From a virus (lineage: Duplodnaviria > Heunggongvirae > Uroviricota > Caudoviricetes), in the IMG/VR virus record IMGVR_UViG_3300044712_001463: a stretch of 64,000 nucleotides of DNA; one strand, 5' to 3'. This document shows positions 28,692-54,468 of this stretch, one piece after another (position 1 is the stretch's first letter; each line of letters begins with the position of its first letter). The translations under genes were made by a program, and so were the position numbers. Under the pieces are notes generated by a model. That model saw nothing but the letters and a program-made list of their open reading frames with translations. It did not search any database and was not told where the DNA came from.

Positions 28692-28719
28692 TTGACATGT
28701 GTCCTAGGGCGAGTATAAT
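28692..28719 (+). promoter_or_regulatory. promoter (TTGACAtgt variant)
   Basis: -35/-10 consensus. Confidence 0.6.
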
Positions 28720-28889
28720 CAGGGTATGAATCAACCACTTCTCAGGAGGCTCTCATGGCGACTTTTAGGAAAGTTCATAAGAAGGGGACTTGGCGATAAA
28801 AGGTGTTTATTTATTACTCCTTTTTTGATATAATTTGATCCAGGAGGTAGTTCTCCATTTCGGAGGACGGATCAAAAAGGGGCAATCAA

Positions 28890-29141
28890 ATGAGAAACCT
28901 ATATCGCTGGGTTCTAGAAAAGGAGATAAAGAGGATAGGCTTGCATGAGGGCTCGGTCTGCATTGTTCCTTTGGGCAAGGATGTCTATCTAGTTGGGGAC
29001 GGCAACAGATTCATTGAAGCCAAGGGGCATAAGATTCTTAGAATCCTTAAGAAGGTGCCTAATAAGGCTGGATACGATTTTCTGTGGCAGTCATTGAAGC
29101 CACTGCGGAAGCCAAAGAAAGTAGCTGACAAAACAAGATAA
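28890..29141 (+). CDS. hypothetical small basic protein (first GC-rich cassette)
   Basis: Promoter 28692; terminator downstream. Confidence 0.5.
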   Translation: MRNLYRWVLEKEIKRIGLHEGSVCIVPLGKDVYLVGDGNRFIEAKGHKILRILKKVPNKAGYDFLWQSLKPLRKPKKVADKTR

Positions 29142-29152
29142 TTGAGTATAAT

Positions 29153-29192
29153 AAGGGGTGAGGCTATTCGGCTTTCACCCCTTCTTATTTTA
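29153..29192 (+). terminator. rho-independent terminator
   Basis: aaggggtgaggc...gctttcaccccttcttatttt. Confidence 0.6.
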
Positions 29193-29203
29193 GGAGTACA
29201 TAT

Positions 29204-29512
29204 ATGGGAACCGCAACTGAGACTTTGAGGAACATCATCTACAGGTGGAGGATCTCCCGGGATGAGGCTGATGCCATCAACCTGGTAGACAAGGGCGACG
29301 AGTTTGGGGCTCCTCAGACCACCTACATTCTGATGACCGACGAAGAGAATGGCGCTGCTGTTTGGATCGGAACTGAGAGGGGCGAGATCAGACGCTTCCT
29401 CAGGTTCTATGATGACAAGACACGAGCCATACGTTGGGCTGTCCGCGAAGCCGAGAAGTATGTTAGAGAGCGGAACATCCCTGAAGCCTCACCAGATGCA
29501 ACGAACGACTAA
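29204..29512 (+). CDS. hypothetical protein
   Basis: RBS taggag; terminator downstream. Confidence 0.5.
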   Translation: MGTATETLRNIIYRWRISRDEADAINLVDKGDEFGAPQTTYILMTDEENGAAVWIGTERGEIRRFLRFYDDKTRAIRWAVREAEKYVRERNIPEASPDATND

Positions 29513-29537
29513 GATTCACACAGGGAATTAGGAATTA

Positions 29538-29573
29538 AAGAGCCGCTCTCTTTACGGGAGTGGCTCTTTTTTC
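29538..29573 (+). terminator. rho-independent terminator
   Basis: agagccgctctc...gagtggctctttttt. Confidence 0.6.
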
Positions 29574-29602
29574 TTGACAAGATGGGTAGGCTTATGCATA
29601 AT
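29574..29602 (+). promoter_or_regulatory. cassette promoter (-10 CATAAT)
   Basis: ctTGACAaga...tgCATAATg. Confidence 0.6.
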
Positions 29603-29621
29603 GTAGGCAAGGAGGTGTGAT

Positions 29622-29846
29622 ATGAGACGCAAGCGTTGTCCTGTATGTGGAGACCTTCCCGAGTATTGTTGCAGTGGAGATAAGATCGGTTTCTATGGTC
29701 ACTTCTTGGAGTGCCCTAGACATAGGTGTAGGCTCAGGACCCAGTATTATGATCATCCAGACAAAGCATTGCAAGCCTGGAACGAACGACTCGCACTCTG
29801 TTATGCAGGAAAGTTAGCTGACCTGAAGCCTAAGAGGAAGTCATGA
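29622..29846 (+). CDS. Cys-rich zinc-finger-like protein (CPVCG...CPRHRC)
   Basis: Promoter 29574, RBS aaggagg; ATGA coupled to tilS. Confidence 0.55.
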   Translation: MRRKRCPVCGDLPEYCCSGDKIGFYGHFLECPRHRCRLRTQYYDHPDKALQAWNERLALCYAGKLADLKPKRKS

Positions 29847-30475
29847 TCCGTTTTGAAAAGCGACTAGTGGATAAGAGCAAGCATGTGCACGTAGCGTGCT
29901 CAGGTGGAGTTGACTCCATGGCAGTGTGTGACTTCCTGAAGAGGGGTGGCTTCAATGTCCGCCCCGTCTTCTTCAACCATGGCACTGAGACGAGTCGTGC
30001 GGCGGAGATCTTCCTGGAGAACTATTTCACTGTAGGCTTCACCAAAGGCAAGTTGTATGGCGAGAAGCCTAAGGATAAGTCCTGGGAGGAATACTGGCGC
30101 GATGAGCGCTATAAGTTCTTCAACAGCCTAGGCTTGGAGACAATTGTCACTGCGCATCACCTAGATGACTGTGTCGAATCTTACGTCTTCAGTGCACTGC
30201 ATGGGAATGCCAAACTTCCCATGGTTCACCGTAGGCTCGGGCGCAGTATCGTCGTCCGCCCCTTCATGATGACCTCGAAGAGCGACCTAGTCGCCTGGGC
30301 TAAGCAGCATAATGTGCCCTGGATGGAAGATGCTAGCAACTTCGATGTCTCAGTGGGAACCCGGAACTACGTGCGGCATGCGTTGATGCCTGGCATCCTT
30401 CGAGTCAACCCTGGTATTTCCAAGGTGGTGGCTAAGAAGGTTAGAGAATTATACTTGACAAGTTTGGCGAAGTGA
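29843..30475 (+). CDS. tilS: tRNA(Ile)-lysidine synthetase TilS-like (N-terminal catalytic domain only, 210 aa)
   Basis: PP-loop ACSGGVDSMAV; FNHGT; TAHHLDDCVESYVFSALHG; RPFMM..K.DLVAWAK.H..PWMEDASN. Confidence 0.75.
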   Translation: MIRFEKRLVDKSKHVHVACSGGVDSMAVCDFLKRGGFNVRPVFFNHGTETSRAAEIFLENYFTVGFTKGKLYGEKPKDKSWEEYWRDERYKFFNSLGLETIVTAHHLDDCVESYVFSALHGNAKLPMVHRRLGRSIVVRPFMMTSKSDLVAWAKQHNVPWMEDASNFDVSVGTRNYVRHALMPGILRVNPGISKVVAKKVRELYLTSLAK

Positions 30476-30482
30476 GTATAAT
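30455..30482 (+). promoter_or_regulatory. cassette promoter driving tRNA(CAT)
   Basis: Overlaps tilS 3' end. Confidence 0.7.
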
Positions 30483-30493
30483 AGTAAGTGTTC

Positions 30494-30570
30494 GGGAACC
30501 TAGCTCAATTGGTTAGAGCAAGCGACTCATAATCGCTAGGTTCAGGGTTCAAGTCCCTGGGTTCCCACCA
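30494..30570 (+). tRNA. tRNA with CAT anticodon (Met elongator or Ile2/lysidine substrate)
   Basis: Cloverleaf, acceptor GGGAACC/GGTTCCC, loop CTCATAA, CCA encoded; directly downstream of tilS and promoter 30455. Confidence 0.8.
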
Positions 30571-30595
30571 CCTTTTCTTCTTCTAGGAGTCCGCA

Positions 30596-30739: not shown

Positions 30740-30758
30740 AGAAGGCAAATCAAGGCAG

Positions 30759-30797
30759 AAAAGACCAGGGGCTAGCAACCTCTGGTCTTTTTGTTTG
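30759..30797 (+). terminator. rho-independent terminator
   Basis: aagaccagg...cctctggtctttttgtttg. Confidence 0.65.
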
Positions 30798-30800
30798 GGC

Positions 30801-30828
30801 TTGACAAGTGGTCTGGGAAGTGTATAAT
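30801..30828 (+). promoter_or_regulatory. cassette promoter
   Basis: consensus. Confidence 0.7.
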
Positions 30829-30856
30829 AGAGCCATACCTACTTTAGGAGGAAGTC

Positions 30857-32007: not shown

Positions 32008-32010
32008 CCC

Positions 32011-32038
32011 TTGACAAGTTTTACGAATCGGATATAAT
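32011..32038 (+). promoter_or_regulatory. cassette promoter
   Basis: consensus. Confidence 0.7.
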
Positions 32039-32073
32039 AGGTCTATCAGACTTCTCTCTTTAAGAGGTGTGTC

Positions 32074-32746: not shown

Positions 32747-32749
32747 CTC

Positions 32750-32777
32750 TTGACAAGTTTCCCAAAAGGCATATAAT
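32750..32777 (+). promoter_or_regulatory. cassette promoter
   Basis: consensus. Confidence 0.7.
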
Positions 32778-32815
32778 ATACCTTGACAGACAAAACTCTC
32801 TCTAAGAGGTCGGTC

Positions 32816-33511: not shown

Positions 33512-33519
33512 AATAAAGC

Positions 33520-33547
33520 TTGACAAGTTCCTGAAAGTAAGTATAAT
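33520..33547 (+). promoter_or_regulatory. cassette promoter
   Basis: consensus. Confidence 0.7.
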
Positions 33548-33615
33548 GAAGACAAAGGGTAAGGCTTTCCCCTTCTAACGAAAGCCAACAAAGAACATCT
33601 CTCTACGAGGCAGTC

Positions 33616-33852: not shown

Positions 33853-33882
33853 AGATCCAACACAACTGAATATAGACAAGTT

Positions 33883-33920
33883 CAAGCCCTTGGAGAAATC
33901 CGAGGGCTTTCTTGTTTTTG
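33883..33920 (+). terminator. rho-independent terminator (duplicate of 44802)
   Basis: aagcccttggagaaatccgagggctttcttgtttttg. Confidence 0.6.
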
Positions 33921-33974: not shown

Positions 33975-33998
33975 AACCTACTTAAATATAAGTAGGTT
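33975..33998. repeat. inter-cassette palindrome AACCTACTTA-AATA-TAAGTAGGTT
   Basis: 10 bp perfect arms. Confidence 0.8.
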
Positions 33999-34040
33999 CT
34001 GAAGAGGCGCCGCTGTAACTTCAACATCTTAAAATAGTAG

Positions 34041-34068
34041 CTGACAAGCACAAGAATCTGCGTATAAT
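34041..34068 (+). promoter_or_regulatory. degenerate cassette promoter (CTGACA -35)
   Basis: gctgacaagc-16-TATAATA. Confidence 0.45.
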
Positions 34069-34112
34069 ATAAGGGAATCGATGATGACGAAACTCCACAT
34101 ATGAGGTGTAAC

Positions 34113-34491: not shown

Positions 34492-34494
34492 ATC

Positions 34495-34522
34495 TTGACA
34501 AGTTCCCTAATGTGAGTATAAT
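34495..34522 (+). promoter_or_regulatory. cassette promoter driving tRNA cluster
   Basis: consensus; 14 nt upstream of tRNA-Lys. Confidence 0.7.
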
Positions 34523-34535
34523 AAAGCTCACAGAT

Positions 34536-34611
34536 GGGTGTGTAGCTCAGTTGGTAGAGTAGCGGACTTTTAATCCGTTTGTCGTGAGTTCGATCCTCAC
34601 CGCACCCACCA
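34536..34611 (+). tRNA. tRNA-Lys (anticodon TTT)
   Basis: Cloverleaf, loop CTTTTAA, CCA; own promoter 34495. Confidence 0.8.
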
Positions 34612-35106: not shown

Positions 35107-35183
35107 TGCGGGATAGAGCAGCCCGGTAGCTCGTCAGGTTCATACCCTGAAGGTCGCTGGTTCAAATCCAGCTCCCGCACCCA
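35107..35183 (+). tRNA. tRNA with CAT anticodon (Met or Ile2), U1-A72
   Basis: Acceptor TGCGGGA/TCCCGCA, loop TTCATAC, T-loop TTCAAAT, CCA. Confidence 0.65.
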
Positions 35184-35477: not shown

Positions 35478-35556
35478 GACTCCCTGGTAGTTTAGTGGCA
35501 AAACGCCCGCATTATAAGCGGGAAACGTCCGGCATCGAAGCCGAACCCTAGGAGTA
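35478..35556 (+). pseudogene. tRNA-like remnant with TAT anticodon loop (possible degenerate tRNA-Ile UAU)
   Basis: Good D-arm (GTTT/AAAC) and anticodon arm (CCCGC-ATTATAA-GCGGG) but defective T-arm and acceptor; embedded in long hairpin. Confidence 0.3.
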
Positions 35557-35671
35557 GTCTTAGAAAGCACAACACCTAGAAGCCTTATGGCTCTTCGAGT
35601 CGTTGAGAGACGGAGAGAAGTCCTAAGTTTTGATACTCAATTATGTTTATATATAATACTATGGAAGACAA

Positions 35672-35712
35672 TAAGCCCTCGGACGCATTAGCGACTGTGG
35701 GCTTTTATTTTG
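35672..35712 (+). terminator. rho-independent terminator ending tRNA-cluster transcript
   Basis: aagccctcgg...ctgtgggcttttatttt. Confidence 0.55.
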
Positions 35713-35715
35713 CCC

Positions 35716-35743
35716 TTGACAAGTAGGCTAGGATATGTATAAT
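35716..35743 (+). promoter_or_regulatory. cassette promoter
   Basis: consensus. Confidence 0.7.
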
Positions 35744-35768
35744 AGAGCCATCACTCAAGGAGGCTGCG

Positions 35769-36482: not shown

Positions 36483-36489
36483 AAAAGAC

Positions 36490-36517
36490 TTGACAAGTTC
36501 CGAGAAACAGGTATAAT
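36490..36517 (+). promoter_or_regulatory. cassette promoter
   Basis: consensus. Confidence 0.7.
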
Positions 36518-36536
36518 AGTATCATCACCTTCATTC

Positions 36537-36782: not shown

Positions 36783-36986
36783 GTTGGGAGTAGACCAGAT
36801 AGGATGTCCGAGACCGGGCACCTGAGCGCGAATGCTGGCTACCGTGCGCTACATTCTGAAAGCGCCACATCTTCGAGTCCTCGTAGGGAAACGGTCCAAC
36901 CCTGTTAAGAGCAGGTATCGAAAAATGCGGAAGCCCTCCGTTCCCTTCGGGGCGATAATAGAGGAAACCACTACGAGAGATAGGGA

Positions 36987-37016
36987 GAGGAGCCATTAGA
37001 GGCTCCTCTTCTTTGT
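36987..37016 (+). terminator. rho-independent terminator
   Basis: agaggagccattagaggctcctcttctttg. Confidence 0.6.
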
Positions 37017-37018
37017 AC

Positions 37019-37046
37019 TTGACAAGTTAGCGAGTCCGTGCATAAT
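37019..37046 (+). promoter_or_regulatory. cassette promoter (-10 CATAAT) driving ORF-less RNA
   Basis: acTTGACAagt...tgCATAATg. Confidence 0.6.
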
Positions 37047-37290
37047 GGAGTTGTAAGCACACAGGCTCCCTCGGGCTCAACTAGGCGAATCGCTGAGGGC
37101 ATTGAAGGGAGCCATTCGATACTGAGGCTCGTCATGAGCATAATTCGGAAAGCCAAAGGAGTCAAAGTCAAGGTGCGGTCTGGCGGACGCCCTTTACTTA
37201 TCTCCAAGTAAAGTCTTCGAGGGGCTACCTTCGGAGTGGTGCGCGAGGCGCTAGAGCCCTGGGAAATACTCCTGGGGCTCTATGCTTTTG
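37047..37290 (+). ncRNA. candidate small structured RNA (promoter + terminator unit with no ORF)
   Basis: Promoter 37019, terminator 37253-37290, no +-strand ORF >=60 aa, multiple UUCG-loop hairpins. Confidence 0.4.
37253..37290 (+). terminator. rho-independent terminator of ORF-less RNA unit
   Basis: agagccctgggaaatactcctggggctctatgcttttg. Confidence 0.6.
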
Positions 37291-37292
37291 TC

Positions 37293-37320
37293 TTGACAAG
37301 TAGCCCTAGATATGTATAAT
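37293..37320 (+). promoter_or_regulatory. cassette promoter
   Basis: consensus. Confidence 0.7.
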
Positions 37321-37349
37321 AGAGTCATCCTTCTTCTAAGAGGCTAGCC

Positions 37350-38027: not shown

Positions 38028-38069
38028 AAAGAGAGCCCTGGGCGTAATAGCCTGGGGCTCTTTTGTTTG
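38028..38069 (+). terminator. rho-independent terminator
   Basis: agagccctgggcgtaatagcctggggctcttttgtttg. Confidence 0.65.
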
Positions 38070-38113: not shown

Positions 38114-38133
38114 ACTACTTATATATAAGTAGG
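38114..38133. repeat. inter-cassette palindrome aCTACTTA-TATA-TAAGTAGG
   Basis: Flank agaactactt identical to copy at 53464. Confidence 0.75.
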
Positions 38134-38166
38134 ATTAAGATCCTAGCTCTCCGGGAAGCTTTCTTC

Positions 38167-38194
38167 TTGACAAGCCAGGCTATTTGTGTATAAT
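38167..38194 (+). promoter_or_regulatory. cassette promoter
   Basis: consensus. Confidence 0.7.
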
Positions 38195-38212
38195 ATACCT
38201 AGGAGGTTAGCC

Positions 38213-39057: not shown

Positions 39058-39083
39058 AAACCTACTTAAATATAAGTAGGTTT
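39058..39083. repeat. inter-cassette palindrome AAACCTACTTA-AATA-TAAGTAGGTTT
   Basis: 11 bp perfect arms. Confidence 0.8.
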
Positions 39084-39135
39084 GATGTCCGGGCAGCCCA
39101 GTAACCCAGAACTTCTGGGGAGATGAGAGTTCTCC

Positions 39136-39163
39136 TTGACAAGTTCCAGAGAATATGTATAAT
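39136..39163 (+). promoter_or_regulatory. cassette promoter
   Basis: consensus. Confidence 0.7.
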
Positions 39164-39191
39164 AGGGTTACACTCACTCAAGAGGTTTATC

Positions 39192-39746
39192 ATGAAGGCT
39201 AGAGTTATGGTTACTCTTAACTGCAATCGGAAGTGTGATGGATGTTGCAATAAAGGTCCAGTCTTTAATTTACACCAAGTTGCCGAGAATCTTGATGAGA
39301 TTCTGAAGGCAGATGAAATTATGATTACTGGTGGTGAACCCATGCTTTTACCGATTAAGGTTTTTGAATTCATCAAGATGTTGCGCTATCATAGGCAATA
39401 CAAGGGAAAGATTTATCTCTACTCTGCCTACTATCCTTCAACGGATAGAGAAAAAGAACACTTCTGGTATTGTGCAGACCTTTGCGATGGTGTGCATTTT
39501 ACCTTGCACGCTGAGGCTACGGACAGGGATGTGGCGGACCTTAAAAGGCTGTCAGAAGATTTAGGGGAGTGGGATAAAAAGCACCGCTCTTTCCGTCTTG
39601 CCATTGACAAGCGCCTCTATGAAAAGTTTGATTTCTCCAACATTGATTTCACCTTTTGGGATGTGGTCAGAAAGTTAGTTTGGATGACTGACTGCCCTCT
39701 GCCTAAAGATGAGAAACTATTCCTTTATGACTTGACAAGTCTTTAA
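39192..39746 (+). CDS. small radical-SAM domain protein (NrdG- or QueE-like)
   Basis: CNRKCDGC = CxxxCxxC; ITGGEPML glycine-rich SAM motif; start ATG 39192. Confidence 0.6.
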   Translation: MKARVMVTLNCNRKCDGCCNKGPVFNLHQVAENLDEILKADEIMITGGEPMLLPIKVFEFIKMLRYHRQYKGKIYLYSAYYPSTDREKEHFWYCADLCDGVHFTLHAEATDRDVADLKRLSEDLGEWDKKHRSFRLAIDKRLYEKFDFSNIDFTFWDVVRKLVWMTDCPLPKDEKLFLYDLTSL

Positions 39747-39759
39747 GAATATGTATAAT
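39732..39759 (+). promoter_or_regulatory. cassette promoter (unit near-identical to 54441)
   Basis: consensus; overlaps upstream stop. Confidence 0.7.
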
Positions 39760-39788
39760 AAAGTTACACTCAAACAAAGGAGGCTGTC

Positions 39789-40689: not shown

Positions 40690-40692
40690 AGC

Positions 40693-40720
40693 TTGACAAG
40701 TTTCCAAAAGTAAGTATAAT
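40693..40720 (+). promoter_or_regulatory. cassette promoter
   Basis: consensus. Confidence 0.7.
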
Positions 40721-40784
40721 CATACTTACAAGAGGCAAGGGTTCCCCTCTCCACAAGTGAATCCACTCTCTCTAGGAGGTCGTC

Positions 40785-41027: not shown

Positions 41028-41054
41028 CAACCGGTCACAGCCGAGAAACACCCA

Positions 41055-41090
41055 AAGGGAGGCAGAGAAATCTGCCTCTCTTTATTTTAT
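41055..41090 (+). terminator. rho-independent terminator
   Basis: gggaggcagagaaatctgcctctctttatttt. Confidence 0.6.
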
Positions 41091-41111
41091 AAATAAGTAA
41101 TTAAATAGGGC

Positions 41112-41139
41112 TTGACAAGTCCTAGGGAATAGATATAAT
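41112..41139 (+). promoter_or_regulatory. cassette promoter
   Basis: consensus. Confidence 0.7.
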
Positions 41140-41157
41140 AGAATCAGGAGGAAAGTC

Positions 41158-41982: not shown

Positions 41983-42478
41983 TGCCGTGAGCCTATTTGA
42001 TGCTATTAACAAACAACTTAAGCCTGTCATTGAAGCAGGGAACATGTTTTCCATAGATGGAAACGTGTTTCTTATTTGCTATATGCCAGAAAACGATACC
42101 GTTTTATTGCAGATAGTCGAAAGGAAAAGTCAAGACCTTGCTATGTATAGGCACAATCCTAATCCTGGAGACGCATGGTATAGCGGCGATTGTTCGAATA
42201 GAATGTATTGGTTTAGGATTGATGGCAAACAGTATTTCTATAAGGACGTAAAGCAACAGGCAAAACCAGTCTTTAATTATCCGAAATCCCCTTTCAAGAT
42301 TGGGGAAAGGGTAAGGGTTAAAAATCCTAAAAAGGTTAACAGCAATCGTGAGGAATTTGTTATTGTATCCTGCCACTTCGAAAATGGTAAATACTACTAT
42401 TCAGCGGGCGACTTTAACACCCATGTCGCCAACTATCCCCATCACTATAATTCCCAAGATGAGTTAGAAAAGGCTTGA
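41966..42478 (+). CDS. MSLFDAINKQ-leader protein (GC-rich family homologue); probable GTG start at 41987
   Basis: VSLFDAINKQLKP; PFKIGERVRV SH3-like motif. Confidence 0.5.
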   Translation: MFSWSNAVSLFDAINKQLKPVIEAGNMFSIDGNVFLICYMPENDTVLLQIVERKSQDLAMYRHNPNPGDAWYSGDCSNRMYWFRIDGKQYFYKDVKQQAKPVFNYPKSPFKIGERVRVKNPKKVNSNREEFVIVSCHFENGKYYYSAGDFNTHVANYPHHYNSQDELEKA

Positions 42479-42502
42479 CAAGTTCCAGTTATTCGGTATA
42501 AT
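42475..42502 (+). promoter_or_regulatory. cassette promoter
   Basis: consensus; -35 overlaps upstream TGA. Confidence 0.7.
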
Positions 42503-42544
42503 AGGATACATGAGAAGTTTCAAACCCATTCTTATGAGGCGGTC

Positions 42545-42956: not shown

Positions 42957-42997
42957 GAGAAGACCCAGGTGCAACTAGCCTGGGTCTTTTTGTTTGT
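42957..42997 (+). terminator. rho-independent terminator
   Basis: agacccaggtgcaactagcctgggtctttttgtttg. Confidence 0.65.
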
Positions 42998-43036: not shown

Positions 43037-43056
43037 CCTACTTAAAAATAAGTAGG
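43037..43056. repeat. inter-cassette palindrome CCTACTTA-AAAA-TAAGTAGG
   Basis: Lies inside a shadow ORF; partial extra half-site upstream (acctactcg). Confidence 0.75.
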
Positions 43057-43090
43057 TCTGAAGTACCCCAGCCCTGTAGATCAAAAGAGC

Positions 43091-43118
43091 TTGACAAGTA
43101 TCCAGGTTTATATATAAT
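43091..43118 (+). promoter_or_regulatory. cassette promoter
   Basis: consensus. Confidence 0.7.
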
Positions 43119-43137
43119 AGAGTCATGGAGGAAAGCC

Positions 43138-43659
43138 ATGAGTCTCTTTGATGCCATAGCCAAACATACCAAGAAAGAGGTTGATTGGAATAAGGCTGGC
43201 GAGTTTTTCGAACTCGATGGCGTTATCTTTTCAATCAATCATATTTCTGACATTGGCAGTCACAACCAATCTGCGTATGTAGGCGTTCATTCCAATCCCC
43301 TTAAGAAAAAGGTCATGGTTGGGAGGTTCAGGTCTGGAGATTTTTCAGGACAACATGATTTGACTAGGATTACGGCAGGCGAAGGTAATTGCCATATGTA
43401 TAAAAGCGCATCGGATGGACCCAACGCCATTCAGGTTGATGGGAAAGTCTTTGTTATTGGCAGAGACATGTTCACTTCCTGCACTAAAAGGTTCCCTCTG
43501 TTTGGGCTCTTCGGCAAGACAATGAGGATCAAGGGAGGCGGCTACGGCGACTTTAAGGTTCAGACTGCCTGGTTGATGCCTGATGGCACTTGGCTGTGTT
43601 CAGCGGGACAGCATCCTAGGCGCTCACATAAAGTCAGCGATCTTGAAGTTATAGATTGA
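43138..43659 (+). CDS. MSLFDAIAKH-leader protein
   Basis: Promoter 43091; SD ggagga; start at ATG 43138. Confidence 0.55.
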   Translation: MSLFDAIAKHTKKEVDWNKAGEFFELDGVIFSINHISDIGSHNQSAYVGVHSNPLKKKVMVGRFRSGDFSGQHDLTRITAGEGNCHMYKSASDGPNAIQVDGKVFVIGRDMFTSCTKRFPLFGLFGKTMRIKGGGYGDFKVQTAWLMPDGTWLCSAGQHPRRSHKVSDLEVID

Positions 43660-43683
43660 CAAGTAAAGGGATTTAGATATAAT
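43656..43683 (+). promoter_or_regulatory. cassette promoter (ATTGACA)
   Basis: -35 overlaps upstream stop. Confidence 0.65.
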
Positions 43684-43701
43684 AGAGTCATGGAGGAAGT
43701 C

Positions 43702-44214: not shown

Positions 44215-44490
44215 ATGGGTAAGTTAAAGGTTGGCAAGCCCATCATCATTCAGCGTCCCATCTACGCAATCCTGCCGCCTAATGCCACACCTGAACAGTC
44301 TAGGCGATACCAGGAGGCTCTTGCCGCCCTTCGCAAGAGATACCCGAAGCCCTTTGAACCTAGCCTGAATCAAAAGTATCATCCTGATGCCATCGAAAAT
44401 ACACATGATACATTCGAGGAATATGTAAGCGCCTTAACTAAAGCCGCAATCAAAGAAGGAAAGATTCTATTCCCGTATCTTTGCTCTTGA
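44215..44490 (+). CDS. hypothetical protein
   Basis: SD ggagtagg; 91 aa. Confidence 0.45.
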   Translation: MGKLKVGKPIIIQRPIYAILPPNATPEQSRRYQEALAALRKRYPKPFEPSLNQKYHPDAIENTHDTFEEYVSALTKAAIKEGKILFPYLCS

Positions 44491-44514
44491 CAAGTTTCCT
44501 GAAATAGATATAAT
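44487..44514 (+). promoter_or_regulatory. cassette promoter
   Basis: consensus. Confidence 0.7.
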
Positions 44515-44545
44515 AACATCATCACCCATTCATAGGAGGTCGGTC

Positions 44546-44880: not shown

Positions 44881-44900
44881 TCTACTTATATATAAGTAGG
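44881..44900. repeat. inter-cassette palindrome tCTACTTA-TATA-TAAGTAGG
   Basis: family member. Confidence 0.75.
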
Positions 44901-44944: not shown

Positions 44945-44973
44945 CTTTAAAAACCCCTATATTTTGGTATAAT
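44945..44973 (+). promoter_or_regulatory. weaker promoter (TATAAT -10 at 44968, poor -35)
   Basis: ggTATAATAaaatag. Confidence 0.35.
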
Positions 44974-45004: not shown

Positions 45005-45544
45005 ATGTTTAGAGATATCGCATTCTTCACGAGCATGTCATCGCACGATAAGAACATCCAGAAGGTAATCGATGACAGCTTCATAAACTACCTTACGAAG
45101 AGAGTTGTTGATGTGAAGAACTCGAAGGAGATCTTCCTCATCTTGTCCATGATTGAGATGCAGAACAAATACACGCGTGCGATGGAGTTGCTCAGGTCTA
45201 TCGAACTCGCAGTGCCGATGCTAGCAACTGTTCTCATCATGGCAGCAGGTGGCAAAAGTCTTCCGTTCTGGTTGTTCTTGCCTCTAGTGCTTGCCATCTT
45301 CTGGTCGTTCGATTTCTTTATCATGCGCCCAATCAAAATCCAGGTCATCCAGGGCTACCAGTTCAGGTTGATGTGCGATCTCACGCAGCAAGAAGACGCA
45401 GTCATCTGCCGGGAAGACTCAACTGATGACAGCAAGATTATAGTCAATAAAGACCCTGAGAAATCAGTGTATCTCCAGGAGTTCATTTCCAATGGTGAGA
45501 AGCTCCTCGAACAGTTCCGGCAAGACCTACTTAAAGGTAAGTAG
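45005..45544 (+). CDS. membrane protein (2 TM)
   Basis: RBS aaaggagcc; weaker promoter (-10 at 44968). Confidence 0.5.
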   Translation: MFRDIAFFTSMSSHDKNIQKVIDDSFINYLTKRVVDVKNSKEIFLILSMIEMQNKYTRAMELLRSIELAVPMLATVLIMAAGGKSLPFWLFLPLVLAIFWSFDFFIMRPIKIQVIQGYQFRLMCDLTQQEDAVICREDSTDDSKIIVNKDPEKSVYLQEFISNGEKLLEQFRQDLLKGK

Positions 45545-45653
45545 GCAGTCAATCTGCATTCACGGGCGCACACTGAGCAATGTCTGCAAAGCTTGCTTTG
45601 ACTCAGTGTGGCGTTCGGGGGAAGTTGCTGGATTCAAATATGATTTCACCAAG

Positions 45654-45830
45654 ATGGGCATCCCCAAAACATTCATGTGGGGTATGCGGTTGGTGTACGA
45701 AGAGAGTTCGGGTATAACCTGGACGATTAATACTGAGCGTTTGGATTCAGCCCCGGCGGATGTCGGGACTAATCATTTAGATGTCATCCTGGAAATCATT
45801 AAACTCTACTTGACAAGTTTGCGAGAATAG
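45654..45830 (+). CDS. possible small ORF (start unclear; GTG 45606 alternative)
   Basis: No SD; low support. Confidence 0.25.
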   Translation: MGIPKTFMWGMRLVYEESSGITWTINTERLDSAPADVGTNHLDVILEIIKLYLTSLRE

Positions 45831-45837
45831 ATATAAT
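45810..45837 (+). promoter_or_regulatory. cassette promoter
   Basis: consensus. Confidence 0.7.
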
Positions 45838-45860
45838 AGGAACTGTGAGATGCAGCAGGT

Positions 45861-45954
45861 GGTAGGGAGAAACGCTAGCGGTTATCACGGTCGAAGAACA
45901 TTCTCCGCCGACGGGAGACAAGGATAACCAAGACCTAGATTCCCTACCACCATC
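45861..45954 (+). promoter_or_regulatory. structured 5' leader: 11 bp inverted repeat GGTGGTAGGGA ... TCCCTACCACC enclosing ~72 nt, upstream of Cys-rich protein gene
   Basis: Between promoter 45810 and ATG 45974; no ORF. Confidence 0.4.
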
Positions 45955-45973
45955 CAAAACATTGAGGTTTCAA

Positions 45974-46628: not shown

Positions 46629-47015
46629 ATGCTGGTCCAGCGTATCATCGCCCTTTCCTTTCTTGGTCTTATCATCTGGTTCTTTGTTTGGGTCTTCAAG
46701 AGCGCGGCAAAAGATAGGAGTAAGGCGATTGCCGACTTCAACCTTCAGGTTGCAGAATTCGCCGCTGAAGCAAGGATTATTCTTGCCAAGGCAAACATCA
46801 GTCTTTACGAAGTCTCTGAACCGAGCAAGATTCTTGGCGATGCCCCCATCGATTACTTCAAGGTTAACATTACTCCGAAAACCAGCCGCATGTTTCGGAA
46901 GGACAGGATAGGGCTCTTTTCTTTCAAGGCGTATGTATATGGCGTGGCTGATGCCCTGCAAACCCAAGAGCAACGCGATGATTTGGAAGAGCAAAAGAAG
47001 TCTCTTGACAAGTAA
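46629..47015 (+). CDS. membrane-anchored protein
   Basis: N-terminal TM; RBS aggagg. Confidence 0.5.
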   Translation: MLVQRIIALSFLGLIIWFFVWVFKSAAKDRSKAIADFNLQVAEFAAEARIILAKANISLYEVSEPSKILGDAPIDYFKVNITPKTSRMFRKDRIGLFSFKAYVYGVADALQTQEQRDDLEEQKKSLDK

Positions 47016-47032
47016 ACGGATATAGATATAAT
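47005..47032 (+). promoter_or_regulatory. cassette promoter
   Basis: consensus. Confidence 0.7.
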
Positions 47033-47060
47033 AGAGCCATACCCCAACTTAGAGGGCGTC

Positions 47061-47806: not shown

Positions 47807-47846
47807 AAAGGAGCCACCTCTAACCCAGGTGGCTCTTCTGTTTTCC
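47807..47846 (+). terminator. rho-independent terminator
   Basis: ggagccacctctaacccaggtggctcttctgttttcc. Confidence 0.6.
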
Positions 47847-47877: not shown

Positions 47878-47897
47878 CCTACTTACTTTTAAGTAGG
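47878..47897. repeat. inter-cassette palindrome CCTACTTA-CTTT-TAAGTAGG
   Basis: family member. Confidence 0.75.
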
Positions 47898-47942
47898 TGG
47901 TCACAGATCGTTACCGGCTAGCCAGGCGCCTTGAGTTCACTC

Positions 47943-47970
47943 TTGACAAGTCGCTCGCTTTGGATATAAT
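47943..47970 (+). promoter_or_regulatory. cassette promoter
   Basis: consensus. Confidence 0.7.
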
Positions 47971-47994
47971 AGAGATACACTCAAGGAGGCGGTC

Positions 47995-48170: not shown

Positions 48171-48365
48171 ATGCACCTCATCTGCCCCAAGAACAAGAAA
48201 CACAAGTTGTTCAGTGTCACGGCGCACGAAGTTCACGACTGGACCGTGGATGAAGATGGCGAGTTCGTTGCCGACATGGGCTGTTCCGAGATGGCTCACC
48301 GCCCTGATGCCAACGACTCCTACCATTGCCTCAAATGTGGGGCGGTGGCTAAAGTTCGCTCTTGA
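48171..48365 (+). CDS. small zinc-ribbon-like protein (CPKNKKH...CLKCG)
   Basis: RBS aaggag. Confidence 0.45.
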   Translation: MHLICPKNKKHKLFSVTAHEVHDWTVDEDGEFVADMGCSEMAHRPDANDSYHCLKCGAVAKVRS

Positions 48366-48389
48366 CAAGTTCTCCCGAATAGATATAAT
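48362..48389 (+). promoter_or_regulatory. cassette promoter
   Basis: consensus. Confidence 0.7.
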
Positions 48390-48421
48390 AAAGTCATAAC
48401 CCTTCACTCAAGAGGTCGGTC

Positions 48422-48656: not shown

Positions 48657-48697
48657 AGAAAGACCTCTCTTAACCGAGAGGTCTTTTTGTTTGTCTT
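48657..48697 (+). terminator. rho-independent terminator
   Basis: agacctctcttaaccgagaggtctttttgtttg. Confidence 0.65.
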
Positions 48698-48753: not shown

Positions 48754-48776
48754 AACCTACTTATTTTTAAGTAGGT
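48754..48776. repeat. inter-cassette palindrome ACCTACTTA-TTTT-TAAGTAGGT
   Basis: family member. Confidence 0.8.
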
Positions 48777-48828
48777 GCCTGCTAGCGACGCGCTCTTCAG
48801 AATTCTGGAGCAATTGTTGTATAAACCC

Positions 48829-48856
48829 TTGACAGGTTTTCATATCTATGTATAAT
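48829..48856 (+). promoter_or_regulatory. cassette promoter (TTGACAggt)
   Basis: consensus hexamers. Confidence 0.65.
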
Positions 48857-48900
48857 ACAACTATCAGCCCTGAATCACTTCTCTCTAAAGAGGCATCGTC

Positions 48901-49769: not shown

Positions 49770-49810
49770 AACCAAGACCTTCCTAAATCGGGAAGGTCTT
49801 TTTCTTTCCC
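49770..49810 (+). terminator. rho-independent terminator
   Basis: agaccttcctaaatcgggaaggtctttttctttcc. Confidence 0.65.
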
Positions 49811-49847: not shown

Positions 49848-49872
49848 TGACCTACTTAAATATAAGTAGGTC
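49848..49872. repeat. inter-cassette palindrome GACCTACTTA-AATA-TAAGTAGGTC
   Basis: family member. Confidence 0.8.
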
Positions 49873-50362: not shown

Positions 50363-50397
50363 AAAAGAAGCCCCTAGAAATAGGGGCTTTTCTTTTG
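50363..50397 (+). terminator. rho-independent terminator
   Basis: gaagcccctagaaataggggcttttcttttg. Confidence 0.65.
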
Positions 50398-50444: not shown

Positions 50445-50466
50445 ACCTACTTATATATAAGTAGGT
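50445..50466. repeat. inter-cassette palindrome ACCTACTTA-TATA-TAAGTAGGT
   Basis: family member. Confidence 0.8.
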
Positions 50467-50520
50467 CAGATGTCTCCTCCGCCAGCTAGCCGGGATCGAT
50501 CTGACTGGCGTCATCTCTTC

Positions 50521-50548
50521 TTGACAAGTTCTCATATTCATGTATAAT
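50521..50548 (+). promoter_or_regulatory. cassette promoter
   Basis: consensus. Confidence 0.7.
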
Positions 50549-50577
50549 AGACTTACACCCAAACCAAGGAGTAAGTC

Positions 50578-51712: not shown

Positions 51713-51759
51713 TCATGGCACATATCCGACTTAGGTCAACCCGAAAAATGCGCTGAACT

Positions 51760-51800
51760 AAAAGAGGGCTCTCTTAACTGGGAGCCCTCTTCAGTTTTCC
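51760..51800 (+). terminator. rho-independent terminator
   Basis: agagggctctcttaactgggagccctcttcagttttcc. Confidence 0.6.
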
Positions 51801-51831: not shown

Positions 51832-51854
51832 GACCTACTTACTTTTAAGTAGGT
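51832..51854. repeat. inter-cassette palindrome GACCTACTTA-CTTT-TAAGTAGGT
   Basis: family member. Confidence 0.8.
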
Positions 51855-51896
51855 ATAGCCTACCTAGCCAGGGAACCCGACCTGGTCATCTCGAGC

Positions 51897-51924
51897 TTGA
51901 CAAGTTCAAAGATTTCGGTATAAT
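51897..51924 (+). promoter_or_regulatory. cassette promoter
   Basis: consensus. Confidence 0.7.
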
Positions 51925-51944
51925 AGAATCAAGGAGATAGCCCA

Positions 51945-52352
51945 ATGCAAATCCACCAAACAATCGGCAAGGTGCGTAGCGCTCTAGAGATTTATGCTAG
52001 CCGCCATCATCTGCTCGGAGCAGACGAAAGTCTGACCTGCTGGTGTGCCATTGGGTCATCCGTTCTCAAGCGCATCCTGAAGGAAAAGCACAATCTCAAT
52101 CCCAAGTTTGTCCGAGGTGCGTGTCTCAATGGCAATCACTGCTGGATTGAATTAGAGGAATACGCGATTGATATAACCGCGTCGCAGTTCTTCAATCAGA
52201 AGGTAAAGATATTCAAGACCAAGAAATACAACAAGGATGAATACGACCCTATCGAAGTCCTAGAGAACGAATACAAACTTGATTGGGGAGACCAAGCACC
52301 CAAACCCAAGCACCTCAAGGCAGTAAAGGCAATCCTCAAAACCCTCTCTTAA
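51945..52352 (+). CDS. hypothetical protein
   Basis: Promoter 51897; SD aaggag. Confidence 0.5.
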   Translation: MQIHQTIGKVRSALEIYASRHHLLGADESLTCWCAIGSSVLKRILKEKHNLNPKFVRGACLNGNHCWIELEEYAIDITASQFFNQKVKIFKTKKYNKDEYDPIEVLENEYKLDWGDQAPKPKHLKAVKAILKTLS

Positions 52353-52375
52353 TCGGAGAGGGTTTTCTCTTTCCC
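52339..52375 (+). terminator. rho-independent terminator
   Basis: aaccctctcttaatcggagagggttttctctttcc. Confidence 0.65.
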
Positions 52376-52411
52376 GGCGATCTCTTCCGGTACGCGTGCA
52401 GCACTGCCAAA

Positions 52412-52433
52412 ACCTACTTATCTTTAAGTAGGT
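52412..52433. repeat. inter-cassette palindrome ACCTACTTA-TCTT-TAAGTAGGT
   Basis: family member. Confidence 0.8.
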
Positions 52434-52476
52434 GCCTGCCACCACCAGGATGTCCTCCCAGCGGGCGACTTTCTCC

Positions 52477-52504
52477 TTGACAAGTTCGCCTATTTATGTA
52501 TAAT
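52477..52504 (+). promoter_or_regulatory. cassette promoter (unit near-identical to 53528)
   Basis: consensus. Confidence 0.7.
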
Positions 52505-52534
52505 ATAATCATACCCAAACAAAGAGGTGCTCAA

Positions 52535-52756
52535 ATGAATCCGTGGGTTTCCTCAATCATCTTCCTCTCCTTCATCCTCATCTGCGCCAAGGACAAGATT
52601 CTTGCTCTGTTCTGTATCCTGCTCTTCATCGCAGAGAACACCTACTTCGGGTGGAACCTGCATCCTTCCTGCACAGGGGAAGAGGTCTGCGACTTGTTCG
52701 TTCTCATCGTTGGCATCTTTGCCCTCTTCCACGAACCCAAGACAAAGGAGAATTAA
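52535..52756 (+). CDS. small membrane protein
   Basis: Promoter 52477; start ATG 52535. Confidence 0.5.
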   Translation: MNPWVSSIIFLSFILICAKDKILALFCILLFIAENTYFGWNLHPSCTGEEVCDLFVLIVGIFALFHEPKTKEN

Positions 52757-52758
52757 CC

Positions 52759-53169
52759 ATGTCCATCCTCAAGCAAGCGCTCGACCTGTCAGGCGTCATC
52801 GACAAGAACGAAACAGCGAAGCAGGTGAATGAAGTCATCGACACCCTCGACCTTCACAGCAAGGAAGGAACCGCTGTCGGCAAGAACCTCGGTGTCCTGC
52901 TCTCGGCAACCAAGTTCGCTCATCACCTCGGAACCTTCAAGGCACTCTTCATCGTCATCCTCAACCTCGCTCTCTACAACAACATCCCTAATCACCTGCT
53001 CGCCATCTCTCTCGCCGTCCTCATCGACTTCCTCTTTCTCAGGTCTATGAAGTCCGTCCAAGAACGGTTCATGGTGGTCTGCATGGCATGGACTACCGAC
53101 TTCACCCTCGGCAGGTTCGACATGGAAGGCAATTCAGTCAAGACCTACACGAAGTTGATTCGGAAGTAG
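52759..53169 (+). CDS. membrane protein
   Basis: SD aaggag; start ATG 52759. Confidence 0.5.
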   Translation: MSILKQALDLSGVIDKNETAKQVNEVIDTLDLHSKEGTAVGKNLGVLLSATKFAHHLGTFKALFIVILNLALYNNIPNHLLAISLAVLIDFLFLRSMKSVQERFMVVCMAWTTDFTLGRFDMEGNSVKTYTKLIRK

Positions 53170-53382
53170 GACCATCGCAGTTCAGGTGTCCCTTCACAGG
53201 GTAAGACGACAAAAGGGTTCGCGTTTCATGGTAACGTCGAAGGATGTGGGTTCCTATTAGGAATTGCTAGGGACCAAGGTTAGAACCCCATTACCTACTT
53301 CACATCCGCAAGGGTAAGATAATCCCTGCATCTGACAAGCGTAATCTCATTCCCGTTCTGAGAAAACCAAGCAACGGGCAAT

Positions 53383-53420
53383 AATGAAACCCTCTCCTGC
53401 AAGAGAGGGTTTTTTGTTTG
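53383..53420 (+). terminator. rho-independent terminator
   Basis: aaaccctctcctgcaagagagggttttttgtttg. Confidence 0.7.
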
Positions 53421-53463
53421 TCAGCAGTCCCCACTGGTACCGGACATCTCCGACGGCAATAGA

Positions 53464-53483
53464 ACTACTTATATATAAGTAGG
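53464..53483. repeat. inter-cassette palindrome aCTACTTA-TATA-TAAGTAGG
   Basis: family member. Confidence 0.75.
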
Positions 53484-53527
53484 TAGGACATCCCAAGAAG
53501 TTCTCCTCCCAGGGGACTACTTCGCCC

Positions 53528-53555
53528 TTGACAAGTATTCGAATTTATGTATAAT
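53528..53555 (+). promoter_or_regulatory. cassette promoter
   Basis: consensus. Confidence 0.7.
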
Positions 53556-53585
53556 ATAATCATACCCACCAAACAGGAGACTTCC

Positions 53586-53825
53586 ATGACCAAGAACATC
53601 TTCAATGCAATCGTCATCACCTACATGCTCATCGCCATCGCTGTCTCCTGCTACTGCAATATCATCAAGGGGTTCCGAATCTTCGACCTGCCCATGCAGT
53701 TTCGGGAAGAGGTCTACACCGCTTCAGGTCTGCTGTGGAACCACATCACCACCGATTTCGCCCTGCTCTGCCTGATTCCCACCCTGCTTGTTGGGGTCTA
53801 CATCATCTTCTTTGTGAAGGACTAG
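53586..53825 (+). CDS. small membrane protein
   Basis: Promoter 53528 with leader near-identical to 52477 unit; start ATG 53586. Confidence 0.5.
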   Translation: MTKNIFNAIVITYMLIAIAVSCYCNIIKGFRIFDLPMQFREEVYTASGLLWNHITTDFALLCLIPTLLVGVYIIFFVKD

Positions 53826-53827
53826 TC

Positions 53828-54046
53828 ATGTTGACCTTCAAGGAAAACGTCAAGAAGTTCGGCAAACCCATTCAGGGCAAGGTCTATGACTGCAAACTCC
53901 AAAGTTTCACCTCGGGCAAGATTGTCGAGGAAAAGTTAGTCGCGGTCTTCAAGGATGACTGTGCGTGGAGAACGGCAGATGACTTCTCGGAAATCAACGA
54001 GATGAATTGGAACGTCATCGAATGGCATCTTGCCAAGGAGAAGTAG
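53828..54046 (+). CDS. hypothetical protein
   Basis: SD gaagga. Confidence 0.4.
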   Translation: MLTFKENVKKFGKPIQGKVYDCKLQSFTSGKIVEEKLVAVFKDDCAWRTADDFSEINEMNWNVIEWHLAKEK

Positions 54047-54048
54047 TC

Positions 54049-54294
54049 ATGAGCAATCCTCTGCGACAGGACAGACTTCCCAAGGACAAGAAGACCAAGC
54101 GGTGCCCTGCTTACATCCGTGAGAAGTATGGACTTGACAGGAGGGGCAAGGGGAAGAACGGGGAACTCTCCCTGCTTCAGGCATCCCACATCCTCGCTCA
54201 CCGCCCTGAACCTACCCTGCGTGAACACATCGAAACCTTCATCGCCAAGGTTTTCGGATATGAAGGCAACCTTCCTTGGAATGAGAGGATGTAA
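54049..54294 (+). CDS. hypothetical basic protein
   Basis: SD aaggag. Confidence 0.45.
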   Translation: MSNPLRQDRLPKDKKTKRCPAYIREKYGLDRRGKGKNGELSLLQASHILAHRPEPTLREHIETFIAKVFGYEGNLPWNERM

Positions 54295-54437
54295 TGACTA
54301 CCTTCGTTCTTATCCTCATAGTGTTTGCTTCCCTTACCTTCCTCTTTGGCATGATTGGTCTTGCCTTGTGGGGAATGGGGTTCATCAAGGGAACCATGCC
54401 CCTAACCAAAGCAAACACTGTTGGTCTTCGCCTTTAA
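54294..54437 (+). CDS. small TM peptide (47 aa)
   Basis: TAATG overlap; hydrophobic. Confidence 0.3.
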   Translation: MTTFVLILIVFASLTFLFGMIGLALWGMGFIKGTMPLTKANTVGLRL

Positions 54438-54440
54438 TCC

Positions 54441-54468
54441 TTGACAAGTCTTTAAGAATAGATATAAT
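54441..54468 (+). promoter_or_regulatory. cassette promoter
   Basis: consensus. Confidence 0.7.

Follow-up and report, generated by a model that had tools for sequence, protein, structure and literature searches.

The uncultivated tailed-phage record IMGVR_UViG_3300044712_001463 carries, in the 64,000-nucleotide (nt) stretch analysed here (the window, from a contig at least 95 kb long), a promoter-like repeat with a −35 box TTGACA and a −10 box TATAAT. Its copies are concentrated between positions 28,692 and 54,468, where they precede short units of mostly small genes or transfer RNAs (tRNAs). All predicted genes in the window lie on the + strand, and the promoter copies are co-oriented with them. 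Sites are named by their position in the window, flank positions are counted relative to the −35 TTGACA, and coordinates are collected in Table 1.

The motif CTTGACAAG, whose count and strand bias an earlier note on this DNA had proposed to check, occurs 33 times in the window and always on the + strand (0.6 expected). The full pattern TTGACA-N(15-18)-TATAAT is matched exactly by 32 sites, again only on the + strand and without exception with a 16-bp spacer, against a chance expectation of 0.08. Twenty-nine of these fall within 28,692–54,468; the other three, at 954, 2403 and 3436, had been listed in the note and were recovered by the pattern search. Five one-mismatch copies in the array (29125; 29574, with N17 and CATAAT; 34041; 35630; 37019) bring the total to 34 in this interval and 37 in the window. 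The repeat is therefore real, although the figure of more than 33 perfect copies that the note had given for the array was slightly too high, as only 29 of the 34 are perfect. One more exact copy lies past the right window end, at about position 65,117, on a Logan contig extending beyond the window. With at most one mismatch allowed, 37 of the 38 copies share a 16-bp spacer, which is the lower end of the 17 ± 1 bp range, and the 32 exact and five one-mismatch copies carry the hexamers that characterize a sigma70-type promoter. None of the copies has an extended −10 TG. Between 28.5 and 55 kb, the + strand has 38 TATAAT boxes and the − strand three.

Conservation also reaches specific positions outside the hexamers. 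In a position-frequency table built from the 32 exact sites, the −35 box is flanked by C(−1) in 31, A(+6) in 30, G(+7) in all 32 and T(+8) in 31, and TATAAT is followed by A (28/32) and then by G (18/32), A (23/32) and G (17/32). An A stands 7 nt past TATAAT in 26 of the 32, mostly in a CAT or TAC context, and is the predicted start. Most spacer positions, as well as −2 to −5, carry approximately 0 bits. A T at −6 (24/32) is largely accounted for by adjoining upstream stop codons or the ends of terminator T tracts; the stop codon of the upstream open reading frame (ORF) occupies −6 to −4 in seven copies, and in four more a TGA stop lies within TTGACA itself. Compared in pairs, the copies share an identity of 0.37 over the 13 variable bases of the spacer and 0.31 over the leader; upstream and in the downstream coding sequence identity is at background (0.25–0.27). 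The downstream genes proved mutually unrelated in an all-versus-all protein comparison. Position-specific conservation on such a background, ahead of unrelated genes, indicates that the invariant positions are held by selection rather than by recent duplication.

The surroundings of the copies are those expected of promoters. In 33 of the 37, an ORF led by a Shine–Dalgarno (SD) sequence begins 12–67 nt past the predicted start (typically 12–38), and in two a tRNA follows after 5 and 7 nt, so that 35 of 37 have a co-oriented ORF or tRNA within 5–67 nt of a predicted purine start; in a few copies the distance to the SD-led ORF is up to ∼160 nt. Ribosome-binding sites are of the AGGAGG/AAGAGG type, the start codon often stands in the context GTCATG, and the leaders are short, C/A-rich and G-poor. 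The predicted transcription units span 0.35–1.7 kb, and each contains either a tRNA or between one and four small genes, most of which are ORFans. For ∼20 of the 37 copies a terminator-like hairpin with a T tract stands no more than 150 nt upstream, at 3–12 nt from the −35 box in seven and at 100–145 nt in 11. The copy at 37019 has no ORF ahead of the next terminator, and may give rise to a small RNA of ∼200 nt. The copies at 33520 and 40693 have near-identical spacers and unusually long, GC-rich leaders of ∼60 nt (33555–33615 and 40728–40784), and the leader of the 45810 copy measures 130 nt (45844–45973). Rfam gave no match to these three leaders or to 37053–37286, and at a permissive threshold reported only tRNAs across the array.

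For comparison of the flanks we used 74 perfect-hexamer sites of other uncultivated phages that had not been selected by the search pattern. C(−1) is present in 65% of these, A(+6) in 66%, G(+7) in 18% and T(+8) in 45%, and N16 is the commonest spacing (53%). Hence cTTGACAa and a 16-bp spacer are generic to such phage promoters. G(+7), which closes a 9-bp symmetry around the −35 box, is particular to this phage and one other contig, L060.

Collectively, these observations make it very probable that the copies are early promoters for the primary sigma factor of the host, strongly dependent on their −35 box and heading insulated mini-operons, and that the source is a large, previously unsampled lytic phage. 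The reading as sigma70 promoters, already proposed in the earlier note, is well supported by context: co-orientation, an SD-led ORF or tRNA downstream, an A start and terminators upstream. From motif, statistics, orientation, gene and tRNA position, terminators and position-specific conservation, all read directly in the DNA, we infer which polymerase acts here, when and how strongly, and how the set would be shut off. Host RNA polymerase with its primary (sigma70-type) sigma would read each copy, which consists of C-TTGACA-AGT, 13 variable bp, TATAAT-A and ∼6 nt to the A start, as the head of a short unit. Intrinsic terminators would insulate these units, unless a unit immediately adjoins the stop codon of the gene before it. 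As the −35 box is perfect and no extended −10 TG is present, the copies should depend on the contact between sigma region 4 and the −35 box; anything blocking this contact, such as an AsiA-like anti-sigma factor, a modification of RNA polymerase or the loss of the host polymerase, would be predicted to silence all of them together. The recurring modules of terminator, promoter and SD sequence might in addition serve as homology patches for the shuffling of cassettes; the single hint at recombination between copies, an indirect one, is that similar promoters precede unrelated genes.

Several points weigh against this reading. The optimal spacer in E. coli is 17 bp, whereas it is 16 bp here in all but one copy, although N16 is also the prevalent spacing among the 74 comparator sites. 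A generic sigma70 consensus offers no explanation for an invariant G(+7) and T(+8). About 15 copies lack an upstream terminator. The AT-rich tract that precedes the −35 box in the early promoter elements of T4-like phages considered below is absent, the mean AT content at −25 to −2 being 0.57 versus ∼0.51 regionally and without a conserved A/T tract. Finally, no related genome was found in INPHARED, IMG/VR, JGI metagenomes or a set of 5.8 billion proteins.

A repeat search revealed a second, longer palindrome, CCTACTTA-N4-TAAGTAGG, or aCCTACTTA-N4-TAAGTAGGt with its flanks, in 15 copies whose 8-bp arms are invariant and whose 4-bp centre varies. Twelve or 13 of the 15 lie 44–74 nt upstream of a −35 box and 3′ of a terminator, and the order terminator, palindrome, promoter is repeated in eleven or twelve spacers. 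It is possible, though less likely than not, that the palindrome is a protein-binding site coupled to the promoter, which would be compatible with early sigma70 promoters. A dimer on a fixed face of the helix would then activate or repress about one-third of the promoters; in another form of the same idea, the palindrome would mark cassette boundaries for recombination. Its position past a terminator places it in probably untranscribed DNA. The distances to the −35 box cluster at 44, 52–53, 62–64 and 72–74 nt, a ladder of ∼10 bp with a resultant length of 0.88 at a period of 10–10.5 bp, a value reached by none of 20,000 random distance sets. Since most of the sequence that separates palindrome from promoter cannot be aligned, this spacing is not simply inherited. 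However, some cassettes are related (52477 and 53528), so that the distances are not fully independent, and only about one-third of the promoters have the palindrome at all. A hairpin in RNA or DNA would also fit: the predicted folding energy is modest, −5 to −12.5 kcal/mol, with no T tract, and because the invariant arms allow no covariation, hairpin and protein site are indistinguishable. No candidate binding protein was detected among the scanned ORFs, the literature offered no match to the palindrome, and in IMG/VR the pattern was met with in single copies only. Nevertheless, the palindrome appears a better candidate than the −35 box for the site of a dimeric protein. The conserved AAGT 3′ of the −35 box resembles its TAAGTAGG arm, a likeness that does not extend further in most copies.

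The base composition of the window is divided in the same way as its promoters. GC at third codon positions (GC3) is 0.62 in the promoter-bearing block at 28.5–54.9 kb and 0.46 in that at 1–4.5 kb, compared with 0.28–0.33 in the promoter-poor blocks (4467–28500 and 54900–64000), and overall GC is 0.45–0.52 in the former (1–4466; 28510–54900) versus 0.32–0.38 in the latter. The boundaries, near 4.47, 28.5 and 54.9 kb, are sharp. Independent Logan contigs (run SRR26046407) cross those at ∼4.47 and ∼54.9 kb; the window is thus not an assembly chimera. Exact matching of window proteins led only to fragmentary Logan contigs of this run. A more far-reaching interpretation, which we regard as doubtful, would see in 28.5–55 kb a gene-cassette array with a three-part boundary of terminator, 8-N4-8 palindrome and phased extended promoter, the palindrome being the site of a dedicated protein. 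That protein might regulate through contact with RNA polymerase, or it might be a recombinase by which cassettes are captured and shuffled, and the cassettes would be of foreign composition, as their GC3 of 0.62 against 0.28–0.33 might indicate. If so, the promoter would act as expression signal and recombination linker at once, in an integron-like or PeSL-like form of gene acquisition by an AT-rich giant phage.

Still less probable is a second role of the −35 box as a symmetric operator, where a dimeric regulator of phage or host, bound to CTTG-A-CAAG, would occlude or recruit RNA polymerase throughout the array. The earlier note had described an 11-bp palindrome, ACTTG-A-CAAGT, and had suggested a dimeric operator. 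The 11-mer is not conserved: A(−2), the partner of T(+8), occurs in just 6 of the 32 sites (versus 31/32 for T(+8) itself), so that the symmetric core comprises 9 bp, CTTG-A-CAAG, which is indeed present. Conservation is therefore asymmetric rather than equal on both arms as in the operator of a dimeric repressor, and arms of 4 bp are too short for a typical operator of this kind. TTGACA itself provides two of the four arm pairs (G2–C4 and T1–A5). The other two depend on conserved flank bases, the invariant G(+7) complementing C(−1) and A(+6) pairing with T(0), a complementarity for which we estimate a probability of ∼1/16 by coincidence. G(+7) speaks for an operator, as its rarity in other phages points to lineage-specific selection and as even degenerate copies (34041, for example) retain it. 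In contrast, C(−1) and A(+6) are generic in perfect-hexamer phage promoters. Away from promoters the 9-mer was found only twice (CTTGACAAG at 27953 and 36415, both CTTGACAAGG within ORFs), and no helix-turn-helix or other DNA-binding Pfam/PHROG family was detected among the ∼110 window ORFs scanned, most of which are ORFans. The dimeric operator thus remains unsupported, and the palindrome at −35 would be largely a by-product of the TTGACA box: we read the 9-bp symmetry as a semi-palindromic TTGACA joined to a putative asymmetric, lineage-specific extended −35 element (C(−1) and AGT at +6 to +8). Nor is there much sign of a divergent promoter, as a −10-like partner on the minus strand accompanies the symmetric −35 box in just 1 of 32 copies.

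A phage-encoded sigma factor or RNA polymerase, with a specificity that mimics and extends the sigma70 consensus, is very unlikely. It would account for a 10-bp −35 element that does not vary and a spacer fixed at 16 bp, and C-TTGACA-AGT, N16, TATAAT-A is kept with unusual strictness. Yet the hexamers are exactly the primary-sigma consensus, with a CAT start context that fits as well, equally strict arrays exist on other phage contigs, and tRNA and anti-restriction genes would be expected to be switched on immediately at entry; no sigma factor or RNA polymerase gene was detected among the ∼110 scanned ORFs of the window. A non-functional dispersed repeat, spread by recent duplication or a mobile element, is scarcely credible, for although a few spacer pairs are very similar (39732/54441, 85%; 33520/40693, 92% over 38 nt), conservation is confined to positions contacted by RNA polymerase while spacer and flanks are randomized, similar promoters precede unrelated genes, and co-orientation is as strict as the geometry to SD/ATG and tRNAs is fixed.

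Early promoters of the host sigma type would also suit the gene content of the window, which fits an early/host-takeover (accessory) region. Recognizable products are MnmA-like and PP-loop (TilS-like) tRNA enzymes, an SPFH protein, a metallophosphatase, radical-SAM-like and HNH proteins and a Lar-like restriction-alleviation protein; the rest are mostly ORFans. The same ORF scans detected no T4 core gene in the window, and the AT-rich blocks show no enrichment of T4 late (TATAAATA) or MotA-box signals. At 29843–30570 the PP-loop (TilS-like) gene is followed by its own promoter copy and then by a tRNA(CAU) (30494–30570), plausibly a lysidine-synthetase/tRNA-Ile2 pair for AUA codons. A second tRNA(CAU) lies at 35107–35183, and an MnmA-like tRNA 2-thiouridylase is encoded at 1009–2031. 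An eighth tRNA-like match, at 35481–35554, is weak (32 bits, just over the Rfam threshold) and was not called by ARAGORN.

Between 8615 and 28502, the AT-rich DNA is occupied by thirty-two tandem paralogous genes of ∼150 aa each, several of them fused into doublets of ∼290–320 aa. They share a near-invariant N-terminus, M-I-S-Y-R-(A)-N-L-F-E/D-S-L/I-N/K-K-Q-I, beyond which they diverge (mean column identity 24%). This N-terminus looks like a targeting or propeptide tag: LFE|S, read as a cleavage site, would conform to the L/I-x-E rule that T4-type prohead proteases follow and to the logic of the capsid-targeting sequences of T4 internal proteins. The paralogues had no match in Pfam or PHROG, and searches of 5.8 billion proteins and of IMG/VR and JGI contigs gave no homologue either. 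Four GC-rich cassette genes (41158–41982, 41987–42478, 43138–43659 and 43702–44211) begin M-S-L-F-D-A-L/I-N/A-K or carry LFDAINKQ, and by this resemblance the tag family reaches into the promoter array; the first of them has a weak match to the WGR domain.

Searches for relatives were largely negative. Neither megablast against INPHARED with two window segments and two comparator loci, nor tblastn against the same database with a 432-aa ORF, gave a match. A profile of the paralogue family found no relative in IMG/VR or JGI metagenomes, and two window proteins compared with the 5.8 billion proteins matched only themselves. The best matches of the MnmA-like protein reached 37–43% identity. A promoter pattern search yielded 93 viral and 67 metagenome loci, none of which encodes proteins homologous to those of the window. 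For the SPFH protein, the closest genomic relatives, at 53% identity, are encoded in uncultured metagenome-assembled genomes of Leptospirales (L177/L178), in an ordinary chromosomal context without such promoters; this is a weak hint on the host lineage, too weak to name a host. Literature searches on both motifs and on run SRR26046407 returned nothing relevant.

The promoters provide a map of early transcription in a phage that has no sequenced relatives, with ∼37 predicted starts including those of tRNA and possible small-RNA units, and a uniform, maximal-consensus, −35-dependent set suggests a simple all-or-none switch from early to middle expression. The array itself would represent the usual route by which lytic phages recruit host RNA polymerase early. 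Less ordinary are the AGT kept without exception or nearly so 3′ of the −35 box, a spacer fixed at 16 bp, the phased palindrome and the sharp split in GC3. These are observations only, but they would be relevant to the acquisition and expression of accessory genes in large phages.

Table 1. Positions of promoter copies, upstream palindromes and terminators in the 64,000-nt window.
Feature	Position	Strand	Remarks
Promoter copy, CTTGACAAGT-N13-TATAATA	953..982	+	drives MnmA-like gene 1009-2031
Promoter copy	2402..2431	+	drives SPFH gene 2504-3382
Promoter copy	3435..3464	+	6 nt past terminator 3403-3430
Promoter copy, TTGACATGT variant	28691..28720	+	
Near copy, CTGACA-16-TATAAT	29124..29153	+	
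Near copy, TTGACA-17-CATAAT	29573..29603	+	5 nt past terminator 29537-29569
Promoter copy	30454..30483	+	predicted start 5 nt ahead of tRNA(CAU) 30494-30570
Promoter copy	30800..30829	+	11 nt past terminator 30760-30790
Promoter copy	32010..32039	+	stop of upstream ORF at −6..−4
Promoter copy	32749..32778	+	stop of upstream ORF at −6..−4
Promoter copy	33519..33548	+	62-nt leader
Near copy, CTGACA-16-TATAAT	34040..34069	+	
Promoter copy	34494..34523	+	predicted start 7 nt ahead of tRNA-Lys 34536-34611
Near copy, TTGATA-16-TATAAT	35629..35658	+	
Promoter copy	35715..35744	+	12 nt past terminator 35673-35704
Promoter copy	36489..36518	+	
Near copy, TTGACA-16-CATAAT	37018..37047	+	no SD-led ORF ahead of terminator 37247-37286; possible small RNA
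Promoter copy	37292..37321	+	7 nt past terminator
Promoter copy, AGC variant	38166..38195	+	drives metallophosphatase gene
Promoter copy	39135..39164	+	
Promoter copy	39731..39760	+	
Promoter copy	40692..40721	+	upstream stop at −6..−4; 58-nt leader
Promoter copy	41111..41140	+	29 nt past terminator 41054-41083
Promoter copy	42474..42503	+	TGA stop of upstream ORF within TTGACA
Promoter copy	43090..43119	+	
Promoter copy, A at −1	43655..43684	+	
Promoter copy	44486..44515	+	upstream stop within TTGACA
Promoter copy	45809..45838	+	130-nt leader
Promoter copy	47004..47033	+	
Promoter copy	47942..47971	+	
Promoter copy	48361..48390	+	upstream stop within TTGACA
Promoter copy, TTGACAGGT variant	48828..48857	+	
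Promoter copy	50520..50549	+	
Promoter copy	51896..51925	+	
Promoter copy	52476..52505	+	
Promoter copy	53527..53556	+	
Promoter copy	54440..54469	+	final copy in window
Palindrome	28647..28666	.	44 nt before −35
Palindrome	33977..33996	.	63 nt before −35 at 34041
Palindrome	38114..38133	.	52 nt before −35
Palindrome	39061..39080	.	74 nt before −35
Palindrome	43037..43056	.	53 nt before −35
Palindrome	44881..44900	.	64 nt before weak promoter TTTAAA-16-TATAAT at 44946
Palindrome	45526..45545	.	no promoter within 280 nt; inside or at end of ORF
Palindrome	47878..47897	.	64 nt before −35
Palindrome	48756..48775	.	72 nt before −35
Palindrome	49851..49870	.	3′ of terminator 49774-49800; no consensus promoter after
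Palindrome	50446..50465	.	74 nt before −35
Palindrome	51834..51853	.	62 nt before −35
Palindrome	52413..52432	.	63 nt before −35
Palindrome	53464..53483	.	63 nt before −35
Palindrome	54913..54932	.	GC-rich/AT-rich boundary; no promoter after
Terminator-like hairpin and T tract	3403..3430	+	abuts promoter
Terminator	28581..28611	+	composite spacer (terminator, palindrome, promoter)
Terminator	29537..29569	+	abuts promoter
Terminator	30760..30790	+	abuts promoter
Terminator	33875..33916	+	composite spacer
Terminator	35673..35704	+	abuts promoter
Terminator	36983..37012	+	abuts promoter
Terminator	37247..37286	+	abuts promoter
Terminator	38029..38064	+	composite spacer
Terminator	41054..41083	+	
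Terminator	42959..42989	+	composite spacer
Terminator	47810..47836	+	composite spacer
Terminator	48660..48685	+	composite spacer
Terminator	49774..49800	+	
Terminator	50367..50390	+	composite spacer
Terminator	51753..51794	+	composite spacer
Terminator	52339..52365	+	composite spacer
Terminator	53386..53413	+	composite spacer

The terminators that end at 28611, 38064, 42989, 48685 and 53413 share the tail TTTT(T)GTTTGTC, and their loops are often of the TAAC/AAAT type, so that the terminators of the composite spacers form a loosely conserved family as well.

The closest known system is that of the PeSLs (promoter-early stem-loops) of T4-like phages, described for RB49/phi1, T4/PST and KVP40/nt-1 (Arbiol et al. 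2010; Comeau et al. 2014). A PeSL combines a stem-loop that acts as terminator, an AT-rich stretch, a strong early promoter of sigma70-like type and SD/ATG; such elements recur among ORFans in hyperplastic regions and have been implicated in cassette shuffling and the formation of mini-circles (PMC2839356, PMC4122927). Near-perfect TTGACA-N17-TATAAT is typical of the RB49/phi1 PeSLs, other lineages having a consensus of their own (PMC2839356, PMC4122927). The array shares with these systems the many composite cassettes of near-consensus sigma70 promoter, SD and ATG, in part with a terminator, amid small ORFans, including the strong sigma70 early promoter with SD/ATG at the 3′ end, as well as a consensus proper to its lineage, and with RB49/phi1 the near-perfect hexamers. 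It differs in its spacer of 16 rather than 17 bp, in the missing AT-rich tract, in having an upstream terminator at only about half of the copies, 11 of them 100–145 nt away, and in the conserved 8-N4-8 palindrome that stands between terminator and promoter in those 11. The array would work like PeSLs but is at most a candidate member of this class.

The classical sigma70 early promoters of coliphages (T5 PN25/P25/P26, T7 A1, lambda PL and those of T4) likewise combine consensus or near-consensus hexamers with a short discriminator rich in purines and a CAT start. They form clusters in the early region and prevail in competition with host promoters. T5 PN25 reads TATAATAGATTCAT, which is nearly the consensus of the array, TATAATAGAGTCAT, and starts at the A of CAT. 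These sets are, however, smaller and less uniform, and the T5 and T4 promoters have AT-rich upstream DNA and a non-consensus −35 box (TTGCTT; TTTACW), whereas the array has a perfect −35 box with C(−1) and AGT as its extensions. Operators that overlap the −35 box in the switches of temperate phages, of the lambda OR/OL type, resemble the array in that a symmetric sequence overlaps a promoter element, but they comprise at least 17 bp with two conserved half-sites and a repressor gene nearby, compared with an asymmetrically conserved 9 bp and no repressor found here.

Sigma70-type promoters with a lineage-specific extended consensus are routinely listed in phage genome papers, for instance those on pf16 and phiPMW (PMC5587285). 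Dense counterparts come from unrelated uncultivated phage contigs in IMG/VR and metagenomes (L018, L034, L051, L060, L081, L085, L088, L116, L132 and L138), with 8–11 perfect, co-oriented TTGACA-N16/17-TATAAT per 8–15 kb. No protein homology links these loci to the window, and none has the upstream palindrome. As in the window, cTTGACAa and TATAATAG(A/T) are common in them and N16 is frequent, and each contig has a conserved spacer and flank of its own, such as CTTGACAATTACC...CCTGGTATAATAGA in L018, L051 and L081. Dense arrays of perfect promoters seem to be widespread in environmental phages, and could be mined systematically.

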